The notes: generated by a model not told the origin, from the sequence alone. Counted from the stretch's first letter, positions 20,084 to 30,337 are shown. The stretch: DNA of 45,032 bases from a virus (IMGVR_UViG_3300016476_000196:1-45032); one strand, 5' to 3'. Numbers and translations are program-made.

Positions 20084-21195
20084 TATTTTGTAGCTCCTAT
20101 ACCTGAACCAGAGAAACATTCGATTGAGATATTTACTTGTGTCTGTAACGGAATCATAGTCTCAGTGAACTTAGTGTGAGTCATGCTTAGGTTAGAAATC
20201 CAGCCAACATAGGACAGGCTGTCCTTAGTAGGACCAAGTTCTATGCCAAGAAGCGTAGGCTGTAGATAACCAATATTTGCTGTAACGCGACCCAGTAGAT
20301 TTGTATATAGGCCGGGTTTTCCATCTGGACCAACGAATCCTGAGCCGTTAACGGCTCTAAATAGATACTCAAGATCGTACAGTGTTCCCTGTTCCATCAG
20401 CTTTTCAATCTCTGTTGAGAAGCTTTGCTTTAGCGCGTTTGGATGGTATCCACTGTAGAACTTAGAAAAGGACTCCCAGCTTTTAGACGCTGTAGCAGAG
20501 TTGTGCTTTATACAAGCAAAGTCGTTTGTTCTATCAAGCAGTAGGTTTAGAGATACTGTTTCTTGTCCAGGAAAAACACCTGTTACTACACGAAGAGAGT
20601 CGGCAGCCGAAGGTGTGATATCCATATTTCTAGAGACGTTGCTAGCAATAGACTCTGGGTTCCAAAGGAATTGGAATCCGTACTCTCTATCCTCTAAAGT
20701 AATTTCGCTACCGCCAACTACAGATGTTCCTTTTACAGCATCTTTAGCCTTAACTACATCTCCAGAGGCGTTGATCTGCGTGATGTCGCCAGAGGTATTC
20801 CAGTACCAAATACGACCTCTACGTAGACCATGGAAGTCTGCGATGCCAGCGGTTGAGTTTCCTATAGCGCCACTATCTACTTCTACTGGTCTTAAAGGCA
20901 TACTCCAAGCATGCGGAGGAAGATTAAACTTAAACTGGTTTGGCGATGTGCCCCATAGAGCCTTTGCTGATGTTTGCACATCCTTAGAGCTTGGCTTTTC
21001 TTGCCAAGCACCTTCAGCTTTAGCAAGCGTGTATAGGTGTGAGTCTGAGACAGTTGTGTCTTCCTCGCCTGTGTACAGTTTTCCGCCCGTGTTTTTTGTG
21101 AGGCGAGCTGTGCCAACTAGAGTAGAGTTAGATATGTTTGAACTAGAAACCCCTCGGTTGTAGGTTCCCCAGTTAGTCGCGTCTAGATAGCCCAT
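20083..21195 (-). CDS. tail tube initiator / CIS-tube-like protein
   Basis: FQFLWNPESI and GWISNLSMTHTKF...IPLQTQVNISI; lies between the tape measure and LysM genes. Confidence 0.65.
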   Translation of the reverse strand: MGYLDATNWGTYNRGVSSSNISNSTLVGTARLTKNTGGKLYTGEEDTTVSDSHLYTLAKAEGAWQEKPSSKDVQTSAKALWGTSPNQFKFNLPPHAWSMPLRPVEVDSGAIGNSTAGIADFHGLRRGRIWYWNTSGDITQINASGDVVKAKDAVKGTSVVGGSEITLEDREYGFQFLWNPESIASNVSRNMDITPSAADSLRVVTGVFPGQETVSLNLLLDRTNDFACIKHNSATASKSWESFSKFYSGYHPNALKQSFSTEIEKLMEQGTLYDLEYLFRAVNGSGFVGPDGKPGLYTNLLGRVTANIGYLQPTLLGIELGPTKDSLSYVGWISNLSMTHTKFTETMIPLQTQVNISIECFSGSGIGATK

Positions 21196-23468
21196 TACTT
21201 CTTACTCGCATTCTCTAGAATCTTTGCGTCTTTCATAACTTCTGTAAGGATACGTTTAATTTCTTTAGGGTTTCCGCCAAGGATATTAATAGCAACCCCC
21301 CCATAGTTATATACATTTGAAAGCCCAGCACCAGTAAGCCCTGCTAGACCTCCAGTTCCACCGGCTGATCCCCATGAACCGCTAATAAAATCTTTAAGGC
21401 TACTAACTTCTTTAGAGTACTTAGGATCAGTAAGAAGCTTGTTTACCTGGGCCAATGTTTTTGCATCAATAGACGACGGATCTATACCAAATAACTTTGC
21501 TACAGATTCAGCATCAACACTTCCTGAAGACCCTCCAGATCCTCCAGAGCCTTTAAAGGTACCCCAAGGACTGTTCTTAATGCTTGCTCTAATTTTTTCC
21601 CAAGGAACATCGCCCTCTTTTAGGAGAGAAACAATTTCCTTATAATGACCTAGTTTTAACGTATCAACGGTGGCTTTAACACCTTGTTCATGAGATGTGT
21701 AGTTCCAGACGTGGTATTGGCCTTTGTCACCAAACGTATTAAATGGTGTTGCCCCTTTATATCCAGTCTTCGTAGTAGCTAAAGGATTATGTCGAGCCTT
21801 AGTGTTTTCTCCTTGTTCCCAATTTAACATTGCTTGAATGTTAGAAGCAGTTACAGGAGCACCAATACCCTTTAATACATCTTTAGCAAAGACTTCTCCG
21901 CCATCGGCGCGTCCGCCTTTAAAGTTGTATTTAGATAAATCATGGTTAGGGATGATCGTTCCATCAACTTTAGGTACGAAAAGCTCAGGACCCTTTTCGC
22001 CCACTAGATACATATTTTGCTGACCTACGTCTCCGCCTTCAGCTTTTGCGCCCTTAATGCCTAGGAGCAAAGACAAAATCTTTTGCATGAAACCGTCTCC
22101 AGCTCCAAGCAGAGTAGTAGCAAACGCATTTGCGCCAGTTGCTATTTGTAGTACGCCAGTTACCCTGTCAATCATGTTCATGAACGCACCAAGTTTGGTT
22201 AGTACTTGGGCAGCCTTCTCAAAACCAAACGCACCAGCATTTGCGACTTGACCTAAACCTTCTGCGGCAGTTGCTTGTCTTGCGCTAAACGCATTTGTTG
22301 CAGCAGTGGTTGCTCCGAATTGAGTCAGGTTCTCTTTAGTAATGGCTGCGCCACCACTCTTAGCCTTAAACAAAAGACCATTAGCAACAAGTTGCTTTGC
22401 CATTGGGTCGTTGCCAAAGTACATATCAAGCATGGAGTCCATAGAGTTGCCTGGTTGTAAACCAATAAGAACTTCGCGCTCGCTTGGTTTCTTTCCAGAT
22501 CCGTATGCTTGAGCATAGTCACGGCAAATCTTGTTCCATAAATCGTCAATAATTTGATCAGGCGGCTTTAGGTTGCCCTGCTCATCACGTAGTCGAATAC
22601 CAATACCACGGAGCATGTTTACATTTCTAGCCTGTTGCATTTGTCCAAAGGCTCGCATCGTTCCTTCGGCGCCAATACCTGGAAGCAGGTTAGATGTCTG
22701 CGCAACACCCATTGCCACACCGCCCATTGCGCCACCTGCAACGTTAGGGCCTGTGATTCCATAGCTTTGCGCAGCAACGAGTGCTCGCATAGCATCCATA
22801 GAATCTGTGACAGTTCCAGTTTTTGCCATGTTCTCTTGAAGTCGGCGCATTCTGTCGTAATCAACAGAACCCATACCGTATAGAGACGCTTGTGTTACTG
22901 GTGCAGCAGCTCGGCCTCTAGCACCAGTTGAGTTAAAGAACGCAGCACGTTGCATAAGAAGCTGTGCTTCTACAGCTTCAGCTGGAGATGTAAGCATTCC
23001 GCTCACTGCGGATGCGGCAAACAATGATCCAGCAGCTGGGTTTTCTTTAATCCAATCGGTTAGATTGTTTCCTCCGCTAAATCCTCCACCGCCACCACCA
23101 CCGGTTCCACCAGAAACAGGCGGGGTGTAAGCAACAACATTGCCACCGCGGCCATACGGGACCATCGCCGTGCCACCAGAAGGTACAACAGGAACGTTGC
23201 CACCACCTCCCCCACCCGCTGTTATAGCGGCTTGCGGAGGAGTGAACTCTGGATCAGGAGCTACTTGATTAGGGGATGCAGAACCGCCACCACCTCCAAC
23301 ACGGATGTTGGACATGCTGTCGCGGAAACGTTGCGCTAGTGCGGCTGCGTCTTGAAGTTCTTGTTTAAATAGTCTGAACTCTTGGCGAGCGTCCACAATA
23401 CCGTTTTTAAGGTCGGCAATGAAGGCTCTTCCTGAGCCACCCATATTTAGCTGGTTTTTACTATCCAC
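21195..23468 (-). CDS. tape measure protein with C-terminal lysozyme-like domain
   Basis: Ala/Gly-rich helical protein after the chaperone; AEGG..YLVGEKGPELFVP motif; putative muramidase segment WEQGEN...HNPLATT...YTSHEQGVKATVDTL. Confidence 0.8.
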   Translation of the reverse strand: MDSKNQLNMGGSGRAFIADLKNGIVDARQEFRLFKQELQDAAALAQRFRDSMSNIRVGGGGGSASPNQVAPDPEFTPPQAAITAGGGGGGNVPVVPSGGTAMVPYGRGGNVVAYTPPVSGGTGGGGGGGFSGGNNLTDWIKENPAAGSLFAASAVSGMLTSPAEAVEAQLLMQRAAFFNSTGARGRAAAPVTQASLYGMGSVDYDRMRRLQENMAKTGTVTDSMDAMRALVAAQSYGITGPNVAGGAMGGVAMGVAQTSNLLPGIGAEGTMRAFGQMQQARNVNMLRGIGIRLRDEQGNLKPPDQIIDDLWNKICRDYAQAYGSGKKPSEREVLIGLQPGNSMDSMLDMYFGNDPMAKQLVANGLLFKAKSGGAAITKENLTQFGATTAATNAFSARQATAAEGLGQVANAGAFGFEKAAQVLTKLGAFMNMIDRVTGVLQIATGANAFATTLLGAGDGFMQKILSLLLGIKGAKAEGGDVGQQNMYLVGEKGPELFVPKVDGTIIPNHDLSKYNFKGGRADGGEVFAKDVLKGIGAPVTASNIQAMLNWEQGENTKARHNPLATTKTGYKGATPFNTFGDKGQYHVWNYTSHEQGVKATVDTLKLGHYKEIVSLLKEGDVPWEKIRASIKNSPWGTFKGSGGSGGSSGSVDAESVAKLFGIDPSSIDAKTLAQVNKLLTDPKYSKEVSSLKDFISGSWGSAGGTGGLAGLTGAGLSNVYNYGGVAINILGGNPKEIKRILTEVMKDAKILENASKK

Positions 23469-23641
23469 TAGCTAATACCTTTCCTACTATTACGTTGTGC
23501 TCGCTCTAGCCAGTTTAGGCGCTCTCTATAGGAGAGCCGTCTAATTTCGGTAAGAGTCCAGCCGCTAAATACTCTGGTAAGTAGTTCGTACTGGTTAAGA
23601 AGGTTTTCGTAATCTTGTTTGCTATATGCGAAACAAGTCGG
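23468..23641 (-). CDS. start-less ORF, probable frameshift extension of the tail chaperone
   Basis: Open +1 frame encoding ..FAYSKQDYENLLNQYELLTRVFSGWTLTEIRRLSYRERLNWLERAQRNSRKGIS*; contains no ATG, GTG or TTG; the stop overlaps the tape-measure GTG. Confidence 0.7.
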   Translation of the reverse strand, partial: PTCFAYSKQDYENLLNQYELLTRVFSGWTLTEIRRLSYRERLNWLERAQRNSRKGIS

Positions 23642-24413
23642 TCAAACTTAGCGGTAGAGGAATATCCTCACCACATGCCTGACAAGTCTTCTTCACCTCC
23701 CCAAGGCGTGGGCCCGGGTTACGATCTAGGATTTCATCAATAATCTTGCTTCGGTCTGCCATGCCTAGAGCAAGGGCGTTGCGAGCACCTATTGATGGGG
23801 CGTCGTTAACTGAGACTATGCAGCCAGACAACAGGATGGTATTTACTTCTGCCGCGGTCTTATCAATGTTGTCCATAAGTTTCTTTTGAACAACGCCGTT
23901 AGGAAGAGCTACGCGGACAGTTCCCAATTTAGTTTCTACATTCCAACTACGATCCTTAACAGGGTCTTTTAACGTCTTATAAGGGACGTCTGTAGTTAGG
24001 TCAATAGTAACTGGCTGTTGCTGGTTACAGTTGCTACATACGACGGTTACGCCAAGTTCTTTTCCAAATGTTACACATCGGATTCCAATAAGGAGTGCGT
24101 CGCGGTCACCAGACAACAAAGTGTCTAGGTGGTCTCTAGTCACATCCTCGGTACCAATCTTTACTACACCTCGCTCTAGCAAAGCATTTAAGGCTTTTGC
24201 TGTTGAGCCAGTTTTTGAAACAATTTCCTCGTCCTCTCCGTTTAGCTCTCTAACCTCTGCTGTAGTAACTACGCCTTCAGGTGTTAGAAAGCCACCACGG
24301 AGAGTGACTTCGGAGTCGGATGGGGCCCGCGTTATAACTTCTACCGCGGGCTCCTCCATAGCCTTCTTTGCATATTCATTGATTAGTTGCGCATCAGTAA
24401 TGATTTCACTCAC
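23622..24413 (-). CDS. tail assembly chaperone / T4 gp26-like protein
   Basis: VRELNGEDEE, LLSGDRDALLIGIR..TFG, two CxxC pairs; lies between tube and tape measure. Confidence 0.75.
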   Translation of the reverse strand: MSEIITDAQLINEYAKKAMEEPAVEVITRAPSDSEVTLRGGFLTPEGVVTTAEVRELNGEDEEIVSKTGSTAKALNALLERGVVKIGTEDVTRDHLDTLLSGDRDALLIGIRCVTFGKELGVTVVCSNCNQQQPVTIDLTTDVPYKTLKDPVKDRSWNVETKLGTVRVALPNGVVQKKLMDNIDKTAAEVNTILLSGCIVSVNDAPSIGARNALALGMADRSKIIDEILDRNPGPRLGEVKKTCQACGEDIPLPLSLTDLFRI

Positions 24414-24438: not shown

Positions 24439-25068
24439 TTAAGCAGTTGGTGCAGAAGTCGGGTTCGTAGCATCGCCTGAACGAGCCTTGAACGCGTCAT
24501 TGCCTGTTCCCTGAGTAAAGAATACAGTTAAACCTTCATGTACAAGACTGATTGATTCAAACAGAATCGCTCCGTCATTTGCGTTTAGGTCTGTGTAGTT
24601 CAAACCAGTGATCCAAGCATTGTGAACCTTGAAGCCCATCTTTGGAACGTTCGCATCTGATGGTCCAGCGTTAGGGTGATCCATAACGTAGATCTTCATA
24701 TCCAAACGGAAGGTCTTTCCTGTTGTAGAAAGTCCGTCACCTGAAGCTGCAGCGAACAGAGAACGCATCCAGTTAATAGACTGGTCGTTTCCATATAGCA
24801 CACCGCGTTGCATTGTGATTGGGCTGAAGGTTGTCATGCCAGGTACCTGATGTACAGTGGTGTTGTAGCCACCTTCACGGTATTGGATTGACTGTGTGTT
24901 GATGTTTAGACCGCTGATATTTGTAAAACCGCCGGTCCACTTTGTAGGACCAATGCTATCAATCGGTGCATCGGTGCCATAAGGCTTCTCAAACTCTACA
25001 TAAAACCGAAACGAGCGTAACGGATCTGTTGCCAGAGTAGAGAAGCGATTGATTGTGCTACTTGCCAT
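24439..25068 (-). CDS. tail tube protein (T4 gp19-like)
   Basis: DPLRSFRFYVE, GGF..ISGL, IQYREGG...PG.T.FSPIT..RG, NAW, ILFESISLVHEG. Confidence 0.93.
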   Translation of the reverse strand: MASSTINRFSTLATDPLRSFRFYVEFEKPYGTDAPIDSIGPTKWTGGFTNISGLNINTQSIQYREGGYNTTVHQVPGMTTFSPITMQRGVLYGNDQSINWMRSLFAAASGDGLSTTGKTFRLDMKIYVMDHPNAGPSDANVPKMGFKVHNAWITGLNYTDLNANDGAILFESISLVHEGLTVFFTQGTGNDAFKARSGDATNPTSAPTA

Positions 25069-25083
25069 TTGTGGTTATCTCCT

Positions 25084-26577
25084 TTACGCCACAGTAACGG
25101 TGGAACCACCGTCAAACTGACCGATTTTGATTACTACAAATTCCGCAGGGCGCTGTAGCGCAACACCAACTTCGATATGGACTTCGCCATTATCGATAGA
25201 TGCCTGTGGGTTATTTGTAGAATCGACTTTAACAAAGAACGCCTGAGAAGGAACTGATCCGCGAAGACCGCCCTGTGCCCAGAAGCTCGTTAGGAAGCTG
25301 CTAACTGTTGCGTCAATACGGCGCCACAATGCAGGGTCGTTTGGCTCAAAGATTGCGAACTCTGTGAGATCGGTAAGAGCCTTACGTAAGTAAATTAATG
25401 TACGGCGTACTGGAACGTACTTGTCCACATATCCGCCCTTGAGGGTACGAGCACCCATTACAACAATGCCTGAGCCTGATACAAACTTAATTGCGTTGAC
25501 TGCTGCAGCGTTGCTGTTAAGAGAATCAAGTTCAGCGTTAGTTAGTGAGGCTACAGAAGTAGCGCCAGCTAGACGAGCCTGAAGACCTGCCGGAGCCTTG
25601 AATACTCCACGAGATGCGTCAGTTGCTGAGTAAAGACCTACAACCGCAGCACCTGCTCCTACGGTTCTTGTTTGACCTGAAGCTCCGCCAACACCAACGG
25701 TTGGGTCAGCGATAACTAGAGGTGGGTAATATACAGCCGCGTGTGAGCTAGCTGTGTATGTATTTGTCAATGTAATCTGATCAGCTGCTGTAGCAGCAGT
25801 ACCATCAATAACTACAAATACGTCATCGCGTGATTCAGCATAGCTGATTGCAGCGTTTACGGTAGTTGCGCTAACAACTGCTGGAACGTTTAGAACCAAT
25901 GACTGCTTGATTGTGTCAAAACCTGAGTAGTCAGTGATGTTTCCAACAGATGAGCCGTTTGCTCCTGTAGAGAGTGCCTGGTTAGTTACAACCGCAGGGT
26001 TCTTGCTTGCACCAGCAGTAGCTGAGTTAAGATCTGTTGCTACTACGTAGGCAGATGCCGCATTGATTGCAGCAACCGCATAGCGTGAGTCAGCGTTGTT
26101 CATAACGATGTCTGTGTAACGCTCCACAATGTTGGCATCCGCAGATCCGCCGTAGTAAACGGTTAGGTTGAAGTAGCCAGTGGTTGTTGAGTCTGTAATT
26201 GTTACGTTGATATCGTTACCCCAAGTGCCTTCATTCTTTGCATTTAGGCGAAGAGTAGAAAGAGGGGTTCCTGCTCGGTCATTGAAAGTACGGACTGCGC
26301 TCTGTGCGCCTGTTCCAACTACACGTTGTACATAAGCACGACTTCCACCGTTTGAGAAGAACATGTATACCGCGATAGGCAGAGAGTCTCCAGCTATTAG
26401 GTTCCATGATCCAAACAGATTTGTGTACTGGCTCCATGAAGTTACCAGTGTTGGTGTGGTAGGTCCGCGATCGTTAGCGCCAATAAAAGCGGCAACGGTA
26501 TCGGAGTTCGGCCCCACTGTTGATTGAATAGGATTTAGTACTTCTTGTACATAAACCCCAGGGCGTTGAAATGCCAT
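25084..26577 (-). CDS. contractile tail sheath protein
   Basis: RPGVYVQE, FFSNGG, GVFKAPAG, GARTL, YVPVRR, FEPND..LW, PAEFVVIKI. Confidence 0.97.
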   Translation of the reverse strand: MAFQRPGVYVQEVLNPIQSTVGPNSDTVAAFIGANDRGPTTPTLVTSWSQYTNLFGSWNLIAGDSLPIAVYMFFSNGGSRAYVQRVVGTGAQSAVRTFNDRAGTPLSTLRLNAKNEGTWGNDINVTITDSTTTGYFNLTVYYGGSADANIVERYTDIVMNNADSRYAVAAINAASAYVVATDLNSATAGASKNPAVVTNQALSTGANGSSVGNITDYSGFDTIKQSLVLNVPAVVSATTVNAAISYAESRDDVFVVIDGTAATAADQITLTNTYTASSHAAVYYPPLVIADPTVGVGGASGQTRTVGAGAAVVGLYSATDASRGVFKAPAGLQARLAGATSVASLTNAELDSLNSNAAAVNAIKFVSGSGIVVMGARTLKGGYVDKYVPVRRTLIYLRKALTDLTEFAIFEPNDPALWRRIDATVSSFLTSFWAQGGLRGSVPSQAFFVKVDSTNNPQASIDNGEVHIEVGVALQRPAEFVVIKIGQFDGGSTVTVA

Positions 26578-28746: not shown

Positions 28747-29283
28747 CTATACCTGAGCGTATTGTTGGAATTGTTCGTCATTGACCATTTCTTCAGGCAT
28801 TACCTGCATGCACTTTAGAACAATAATGGTACCGCGGTCATCAACATATCCTTGGGTCTGTGTCTGCATTGGGCGGTATACCTGATTTTGCCAAACAACT
28901 CTATATTTGTTAGCAAAATTTATCTGTGGCTTGATGCGACCACGGTCATCAAAAAAGATTTCAGGGCTAGCCTTCTGTAGGTCATCAATGTTAATCGTTA
29001 GCTTAAGAGAGTCGGATGAGTAGAATCCTCGTTGGTTAGTTTGATTTACACCGTGAGTGATAGAGGCGCTAATAACAGGAAGTTCAACTGGCCCATCCCA
29101 CACACGACCTGCGCCTATCGGCTCTACATCATAAATAGGATCAGCCTGAGATTCAGCGTCGTTATAAATCCACCATTCAGCAGTTGTACCAAAAGGATTG
29201 GTCGCATCCCAAGTGATGCCGTCACCAACCTCATCTAGTTCCCAGTCAGTGCTAAACCGACCGCCAGGCTCATACGCTCTCAT
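28747..29283 (-). CDS. head closure/neck protein (putative)
   Basis: DPIYD...GRVW.GP..LPV, GFY..D.L motifs; late-operon context. Confidence 0.55.
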   Translation of the reverse strand: MRAYEPGGRFSTDWELDEVGDGITWDATNPFGTTAEWWIYNDAESQADPIYDVEPIGAGRVWDGPVELPVISASITHGVNQTNQRGFYSSDSLKLTINIDDLQKASPEIFFDDRGRIKPQINFANKYRVVWQNQVYRPMQTQTQGYVDDRGTIIVLKCMQVMPEEMVNDEQFQQYAQV

Positions 29284-30337
29284 CGATCTCCTTGGCTTTG
29301 TAGAATACTAGGTTACGGGCTAAGCGCTCGTCTGTGGGGTTGAGCTCTAGTGCCTTTTCTCCGTATGAGATGGCTTGTTCATATAGCCCTAAGTTATAGG
29401 AAGCAAGGGCGGCTAGATCATAAACCTCAAACCCCCATGCAAAGTCTTCTACTATGTAGTCCATTTTCTTATCAGTGATTAACAGCGCGTTCTCCGCCCA
29501 CATTAAACACATTTCCCAGTCTTCTTTTTTATGGTAATGACGCGCCATAAGTACCAAGGGCTCTCGTCTTCCAGAAGACTCCTCTATAGACTTTTCACAC
29601 CAATACGGGGCTTGATCCACTTCAATACGGGCTAGGTAGTTCATAGAAGAAGCCCGCTCAGGCTTCCACCAAGCTGTAGGTAAAGAAAGATGTCGCTTAA
29701 ACTCTTTAGCAGATTCTTCCCATAATCCATTAAAATAAAGTTCTCGAGCATAATAAAAAGCGTTGCGATCGCTATACGGATCTTCTTGCACGGCCATCTT
29801 AAGTAGGCCTAGATAACTTCCTCGGGACTTTGACTCATCAGGTCTATGATGGATTTCAAAGTTCATGCGCATTCTTTTTTCTTCAATGCCGTATGGAGAA
29901 GGTAGTTCGTGAATGGGGTATCTCCAACGATAGCCAAATCGAGTATGGATGCGAAAGCCGTCAAACTCGGTTCCAGGACTCCCGTCAGGTAGCCACGATG
30001 TTATGAATCTGTAGGTTGGGCGAGTCACGCCTTGGGTGTGGGCCTTTTCTAATTCCTCACGCCAACCCGGTTGTAGCACCTCATCCATATCTAATGCAAT
30101 GCAATAGTCTGCATCAGTGGGGACAAATGCTAAAGATAAGTTTCTAGCGTCATCAAAACGCCATGGTTTAACCGTAATCCCATGAACCTGTATACCTAAA
30201 GCTAACGCCTTCTCAACGGTCTTATCCGTAGAGCCGGTGTCTGCTATGACAAGGTAATCAGCGCCCTCGGCAGACTTAGCCCAGCGTTCTACAAATTGTT
30301 CTTCGTTAAGGGCGATTGTGTAAACCGCTACCTTCAT
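29270..30337 (-). CDS. glycosyltransferase family 2 with C-terminal TPR repeats
   Basis: VYTIALNEE, ADTGSTDKT, FDDARN, LDMDE (DxD), IHE; TPR-like helices (FYYAREL, YEQAISYGEKALELNP). Confidence 0.92.
   Translation of the reverse strand: MKVAVYTIALNEEQFVERWAKSAEGADYLVIADTGSTDKTVEKALALGIQVHGITVKPWRFDDARNLSLAFVPTDADYCIALDMDEVLQPGWREELEKAHTQGVTRPTYRFITSWLPDGSPGTEFDGFRIHTRFGYRWRYPIHELPSPYGIEEKRMRMNFEIHHRPDESKSRGSYLGLLKMAVQEDPYSDRNAFYYARELYFNGLWEESAKEFKRHLSLPTAWWKPERASSMNYLARIEVDQAPYWCEKSIEESSGRREPLVLMARHYHKKEDWEMCLMWAENALLITDKKMDYIVEDFAWGFEVYDLAALASYNLGLYEQAISYGEKALELNPTDERLARNLVFYKAKEIDESV

Follow-up and report, generated by a model that had tools for sequence, protein, structure and literature searches.

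A predicted programmed +1 frameshift in a contractile-tailed phage family's tail assembly chaperone gene

Introduction

How is a reading frame translated that has no usual start codon, is out of frame with the gene upstream of it, and ends on the start codon of the gene downstream? The question is raised by IMGVR_UViG_3300016476_000196:1-45032, a stretch of 45,032 nucleotides (nt) that was analyzed at its full length and is hereafter called the window, with coordinates counted from its first letter. The 45-kb window comes from a phage with a contractile tail and carries genes for the sheath, tube, baseplate, capsid, and replication, all of them on the minus strand, as are the junction features and neighboring tail genes given below. 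In it, gene G (23622..24413), which encodes a 263-residue tail assembly chaperone of the T4 gp26/gp51-like family, is followed by a frame offset by +1, here called T (23468..23641), and then by the tape measure gene (21195..23468), identified by matches to tape measure proteins in PHROG (E 1e-4).

Tailed phages are reported to use −1, −2, or +1 shifts (PMC5009743); 350 forward sites are found among SEA-PHAGES annotations (PMC10274946), and further chaperone shifts are described in PMC12846349 and PMC3711429. A preliminary description of the window proposed that tRNA-Phe slips by +1 at UUU-CGC near the end of G, presented T as selected coding sequence, and implied that the forward direction was a novelty among tail chaperones. 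Here, we compared this junction across a large set of related loci, and we consider it very likely (probability about 0.85), judging from sequence comparison, that a programmed +1 frameshift yields a 263-residue G and a 314-residue GT.

Results

The 3′ end of G reads ACC GAC TTG TTT CGC ATA TAG, with the TTT at 23633-23631 and the TAG at 23624-23622. In the +1 frame no stop occurs between 23641 and the TAG at 23470-23468, a span of 57 codons that encodes GWTLTEIRRLSYRERLNWL, and this TAG has one G in common with the GTG of the tape measure gene (23468). Within the T frame there is no ATG, GTG, or TTG, and only ATT is present, at codons 33 and 56. A TGA at 23642..23644, three codons before the shifted TTC, shuts the frame upstream and confines any shift to the last five codons of G; in this interval, TTT_C (23630..23633) is the only site that allows +1 re-pairing in the P site, and none allows it at −2, as judged by our own P-site pairing rule. 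A shift there would add 53 residues after Phe261. The end of G, the start-less +1 frame, the TGA that shuts it, and its overlap with the tape measure GTG had been given in the preliminary description and proved exact on recheck. That description had also named a single-base indel error as a possible source of the offset; contigs of runs X2 and X4, which come from other studies, are free of indels at the junction, and so is a contig of run X1, from which the window may itself derive.

From 412 gathered sequences (the window included, the T4 locus excluded), 241 were dropped as duplicates, their 360 nt matching another sequence exactly, and 23 more as truncated. A profile of T matched 145 distinct records, in every one of which (145/145) the frame is offset by +1, and three records were without a match. 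The 145 records were reduced to 93 representatives under 90% identity, and an earlier set of 70 representatives was used for stop counts and for the ratio of nonsynonymous to synonymous substitution rates (dN/dS); kinship among the sequences inflates the conservation counts given below, but synonymous sites are near saturation (proportion of synonymous differences, pS, ~0.58). In the 120 nt past the G stop, the +1 frame is free of stops in 70/70 representatives, while a stop interrupts frame 0 in 66 of them and frame +2 in 69. The dN/dS of T (0.14, 92 pairs) is close to that of G (0.12, 40 pairs). By these measures T is under purifying selection, and its earlier reading as selected coding sequence is borne out. 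No start codon of T is conserved: 49 of the 93 representatives offer no ATG, GTG, or TTG at all, and the +1 frame is shut within 50 nt upstream of the shift site in 60/91.

The shift codon and the base that follows it are TTT_C in 71 of the 93 representatives, CTT_T in 17, and CTT_C in five, so that YTT_Y is found in 93/93. The 22 CTT_Y representatives form one clade (Shimodaira-Hasegawa-like approximate likelihood ratio test 99, in a quickly built tree that included 92 of the 93 rows); this clade comprises loci L045-L080 and L257-L324, and its CTT_T or CTT_C sits four codons before the stop. Among the 71 TTT representatives, the following codon is CGN in 64 and CAA, CAG, or CTC in seven, and the preceding codon is TTG in 55 and CTG in 10, which makes the window's TTG TTT CGC (23628..23636) an example of the preferred E-site TTG/CTG and A-site Arg codon CGN. 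The distance from TTT to the stop is 2, 3, 4, or 9 codons. Two loci (L334 and L336) carry TTT CGT nine codons ahead of the G stop, and closeness to the stop is thus not needed; a slip at the codon directly ahead of the stop was rejected, as it would suit no more than 6/70. The preliminary description had put forward the word TTT-CG-N4-stop and the +1 offset for comparison across related contigs. The offset is universal among the matched records, but the G after TTT_C is not required and the spacing to the stop varies. What is retained of the UUU_CG motif is its UUU_C, within a wider core YUU_Y that, on these codon counts, resembles the UUU_Y sites of bacteria and the CUU_U of prfB more than it does the influenza PA-X site alone.

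The choice of codon is itself constrained. The Phe codon at the site is TTT in 58/58 aligned representatives, although TTT makes up only 0.66 of Phe codons in G, and TTT is kept there in three GC-rich loci (L033, L037, and L040) in which its share of Phe is 0.07, 0.10, and 0.17. Constraint on the amino acids of the +1 frame cannot explain the invariant TTT where that frame is shut just upstream and lacks a start. In the window's 46 genes, all on the minus strand, C comes next after in-frame TTT in 9.7% of cases (31/321), compared with 18.9% for other NNT codons (p 1.6e-5), a depletion that fits UUU_Y being slip-prone in the host. With C and T counted together as the next base, the frequency after in-frame TTT is about half that after other NNT codons (p 1.2e-6), which suggests genome-wide avoidance of a slip-prone word.

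More distant relatives were also examined. A profile search returned 217 relatives of T, of which 148 of the best 150 are short, and no G-T fusion was present among these best 150 or among the best 120 of 1272 G homologues (lengths 246-269 aa); in-frame fusion in homologues, which the preliminary description had named as a finding that would count against a shift, was thus not seen. A Phe lies 15-36 residues before the conserved core in 48 of the 49 T relatives long enough to reach the junction, as +1 reading of TTT_C predicts, and Phe makes up 2.2% of the C-terminal parts of these proteins. The three records without a T match, which are loci from metagenome-assembled genomes (MAGs) of Lysobacter (L169-L171; L169:1890-2060), carry a distant G homologue that ends in a T9 run, followed by a T-like frame at −1 with an in-frame ATG. 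Because of this run and this ATG, these distant cousins appear, from their sequences, to use another route, which would be a separate gene or a slip in the common, backward direction.

The identity of G as a chaperone rests on family, fold, and position. G matches PF12322, the T4 gp26/gp51 family (E 1.5e-11), and phrog_150 in PHROG, and has a weak match to a gp51 profile (E 0.00057); among its aligned relatives, PF12322 was found in 24/24 and PF10109 (Phage_TAC_7, a tail assembly chaperone family) in 4/24. In two fold searches with a predicted model of G (predicted local distance difference test 87.8), the top match in the PDB was the HK97 tail chaperone 2OB9 (Foldseek probability 0.96, E 0.17; VIA Z 7.0, root-mean-square deviation 3.7, 95 residues aligned). 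These scores are moderate, yet consistent with the position of the gene between those for the tail tube and the tape measure, as in chaperone pairs of the G/GT type. G and T thus combine the gene position, the chaperone fold and family, and a selected, out-of-frame downstream open reading frame (ORF) without a conserved start that mark such pairs. T itself matched P2 GpE (PF06528) weakly, at E 0.0065 and below the curated cut-off, with the match seen in 10/30 members. A comparison of T with the C-terminus of T4 gp51 gave E 0.071 at a probability of 0.8%, which speaks neither for nor against homology.

A second conserved element lies inside G. Besides the TTT, the sole G column of a two-codon amino acid in which the codon is fully fixed is a Glu ~65 nt upstream, part of GGGGAGGTGA (23693..23702), a strong internal Shine-Dalgarno (SD)-like sequence that is a near-perfect complement of the anti-SD and has no usable T start behind it. 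GAG GTG is used in 70/72 representatives with Glu-Val at this place, and in 22/22 of the CTT clade, against background shares of 0.45 for GAG among Glu codons and 0.14 for GTG among Val codons. The window's duplex with the anti-SD reaches −16.3 kcal/mol, compared with a mean of −8.1 for synonymous resamples, and a duplex of −9 kcal/mol or better is found in 86/93 representatives versus 31 expected from synonymous resampling, with the best position at −65 to −69 in 73. The SD is held within a block of synonymous constraint, CCA CGC CTT GGG GAG GTG (23693-23720), that is kept in two distant clades. Several deep TTT_C lineages, BRock included, are without an SD at that place, and the SD is therefore not required for the arrangement; nor can it serve T in the window as an initiation signal, since a ribosome reading on from it in the +1 frame would meet two stops. 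The segment 23570-23719 folds well (z −3.91), and a consensus hairpin over the SD showed no compensatory change in six pairs and lacks its 5′ arm in the CTT clade. A second SD at about −36 in lineages without the one at −67 mostly did not exceed synonymous resampling and is not claimed, and a conserved small ORF behind the SD was rejected, as lengths and frames vary.

Downstream, the next long ORF begins between −17 and +15 nt from the T stop in 84/88 loci, and translation of the tape measure gene may accordingly be coupled to that of GT. In one locus (L006), ~150 nt after the G stop, 20 nt are missing that hold the T stop and the tape measure start in close relatives; its T thus continues in frame into the tape measure gene, as either a natural fusion or an assembly error. 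Upstream of G lie the tail tube gene (24439..25068; PF06841, phrog_4542) and the tail sheath gene (25084..26577; phrog_23, PF17482), which marks the tail as contractile. A glycosyltransferase gene is found at 29270-30337 (phrog_13126, E 1.7e-112), amid tail-fibre and collagen-like genes, and no tRNA genes were found in the window. The sequencing runs that best match the window are freshwater and wastewater metagenomes. Its nearest cultured relatives are the Streptomyces phages BRock, LuckySocke, Alone3, pSt2308, and GiJojo (35-38% identity of G), with a Kitasatospora locus as a further relative, and from this kinship the host of the window phage is likely actinobacterial.

Discussion

The reading of the junction as a +1 slip is supported in four ways: the offset is uniform, no start is conserved, TTT_C is invariant, and −2 re-pairing is excluded at the window's site. 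In the mechanism that we propose, peptidyl-tRNA-Phe in the P site would let go of UUU and pair with the UUC that overlaps it, probably during a wait at the CGN codon in the A site; reading would then continue as ..DLF-AYSK.. to the stop that overlaps the tape measure start, so that the 314-residue GT would be made alongside the 263-residue G. By analogy with lambda gpG and gpGT, whose roles are described in PMC5009743, the tape measure protein would be coated by numerous short copies and joined to the tube protein by a few long ones, and a low slip rate would set the G:GT ratio. The CTT sister clade likely slips alike, with tRNA-Leu at CUU_U or CUU_C.

Several observations weigh against this reading. 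TTT_C is insufficient alone, as another stands in frame at codon 42 of G and 31 are spread across the window's genes, and CTT followed by a pyrimidine shows no depletion in the window genome. No prfB-like SD was found beside the site, where the mean anti-SD duplex is no better than −2.5 kcal/mol; shuffled sequences fold as well as the segment 23540-23628 (z −0.09), and from 37 sequences RNAalifold predicted no pair 3′ of the site and thus no conserved downstream structure. CGC is not rare in the window, where it accounts for 122 of 568 Arg codons, and a +1-frame start with an SD could yield a separate T in 13/93 representatives, nine of them in the CTT clade. An RNA run (X20, share 0.06) gave no match to the window and counts neither way. 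A low basal rate may suffice when combined with the context of TTG/CTG and CGN, by analogy with PA-X, whose shifting is described in a review as very low in level and as having no noted stimulators (PMC5009743).

Other routes to a T-bearing protein would have to account for the same observations. A −2 frameshift like that known for phage Mu (PMC5009743) would enter the identical frame with one residue added, and it gains something from one locus whose CTT TTT permits it (L043) and from the CTT TTA clade, which could slip by −2 on a run of four U with wobble pairing. In the window, tRNA-Phe would land on UGU with a mismatch at the middle position; re-pairing of the same tRNA is possible in only 1/93 representatives, a −2 site of any kind occurs near the stop in 9/70, and what stays invariant is the pyrimidine just 3′ of the codon, in line with a +1 slip. 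We therefore regard a backward slip of this kind as very unlikely. Slippage by the polymerase, which makes the same kind of fusion in other systems, would drop one U and let some mRNAs be read through in frame. The conserved unit at this junction is codon-phased, however, and the run is only T3 in the window (in the CTT clade, T4), whereas the tracts on which polymerases usually slip are far longer, which leaves this explanation an equally slight chance.

Translation of T as a small protein of its own, from its own or a non-canonical start reached through the upstream SD or by re-initiation after the G stop, has more in its favor. The SD is strong, an SD-led GTG or TTG stands in an open +1 frame in nine CTT-clade representatives (GTG at −59 in each) and in four of the TTT clade, the Lysobacter cousins carry an in-frame ATG, and annotations of the BRock-like phages call a separate gene. 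The preliminary description had foreseen that homologues with their own start and SD would speak against frameshifting; such a start is available in these 13 representatives, and 49 have no usual start codon at all. The two stops between SD and T in the window and the upstream closure of the frame in most representatives argue against separate initiation, the starts annotated in BRock-like phages (at +34 and +76 nt) cut into the conserved motif, and the invariant TTT would be left unexplained. As a general account, separate initiation is thus improbable, although the GTG at −59 suggests that some members of the CTT clade may use it as an additional route. That the whole arrangement is an assembly error or a decayed pseudogene has a negligible probability: the window is a metagenomic assembly, but the X2 and X4 contigs carry no indel, the same offset recurs in 145 records including cultured phages, and T is under purifying selection.

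If T is reached by a +1 slip, the conserved SD upstream needs an explanation of its own. Our best guess, by analogy with the STAB-SD precedent cited in PMC2358910, is that it is a candidate 5′ stabilizer of the tape measure message. It is doubtful that it acts as a long-range recoding element, holding a ribosome that trails or is parked at a distance of two ribosome-lengths from the shift site and so tuning the +1 slip at UUU_C or CUU_Y. The SDs known to stimulate frameshifting are found 3 nt upstream for +1 and 9-14 nt upstream for −1 (PMC5009743), and such a role would, if true, place this SD far outside the spacings of bacterial frameshifting. A relic or clade-limited start of T and a hairpin are other candidate roles.

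The arrangement is not new in kind, for both its direction and its motif are already in print as predictions for archaeal myoviruses. HSTV-2 is described as very likely using +1 (PMC5009743, repeated in PMC8211752), and PMC7230728 proposes that haloviruses of the HF1 group shift by +1 at a TTT-CGC next to the stop codon of their first tail chaperone gene, citing PA-X and amalgaviruses and calling for experiments; the novelty implied in the preliminary description does not hold. New here are the CUU_Y clade, the mis-annotated culturable relatives such as BRock, and the synonymously conserved start-less SD upstream. In literature open without subscription, we found no published +1 shift for BRock-like or freshwater gp26-type phage chaperones.

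Among known chaperone pairs, the window resembles those of lambda (gpG/gpGT), P2 (gpE/E+E′), and HK97 in gene position and in its short and frameshift-extended forms, with HK97 as the best fold match of G and P2 as the source of the weak GpE match of T. It differs from lambda, which slips by −1 in tandem on an X XXY YYZ heptamer, in that the window family is +1 throughout and has no heptamer; a −1 frame with T9 occurs only in the three Lysobacter loci. T4 shares the family PF12322 with G but encodes the two forms as separate genes, gp26 and gp51 (annotation; PMC10274946). The Borockvirus group, BRock and relatives, has the same +1 frame and TTT_C site, and differs in lacking an SD at −67, except for a weak match in one locus (L082). 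In the five BRock-like records (L081-L085) no frameshift is annotated, G is labelled baseplate or hypothetical, and T is either a separate small gene or missing. The BRock gene at the tape measure position is labelled endolysin. A direct test of the +1 shift would be easy in the cultured Streptomyces phages BRock, GiJojo, and LuckySocke, whose annotations need a joined gene.

A close likeness in arrangement is to HF2 of the HF1 group and to HSTV-2, myoviruses with two frames between the tube and tape measure genes, a +1 offset, and TTT-CGC near the stop: HF2 reads AAG TTT CGC AGA TAG and the window TTG TTT CGC ATA TAG, with equal spacing to the stop. HF2 differs in its archaeal host and in a first protein of 156 aa versus 263 in the window, and the HF1-group passages of PMC7230728 mention no CTT_Y variant or upstream SD; no homology of G or T to the HF2 chaperones was detected. 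As for the slip itself, PA-X (UCC_UUU_CGU), the UUU_Y sites that are +1-prone in bacteria, and the CUU_U of prfB (both PMC5009743) share with this family a UUU or CUU in the P site and a pyrimidine right after it, with CGN in the A site in most. The E-site codon is TTG or CTG and not the UCC of PA-X, and the site departs from prfB in that the A-site codon is sense and no SD lies 3 nt upstream. The window has an in-frame UUU followed by CGN, the form of PA-X, the amalgaviruses, and the HF1 group, which is common and not invariant in its family. These comparisons would extend the +1 signal of influenza PA-X, already proposed for the archaeal HF1 group, to a large family of bacterial myophages and suggest the use of UUU_C(G) in all three domains, while the swap between UUU_C and CUU_Y clades provides a natural test that re-pairing of the P-site tRNA matters.

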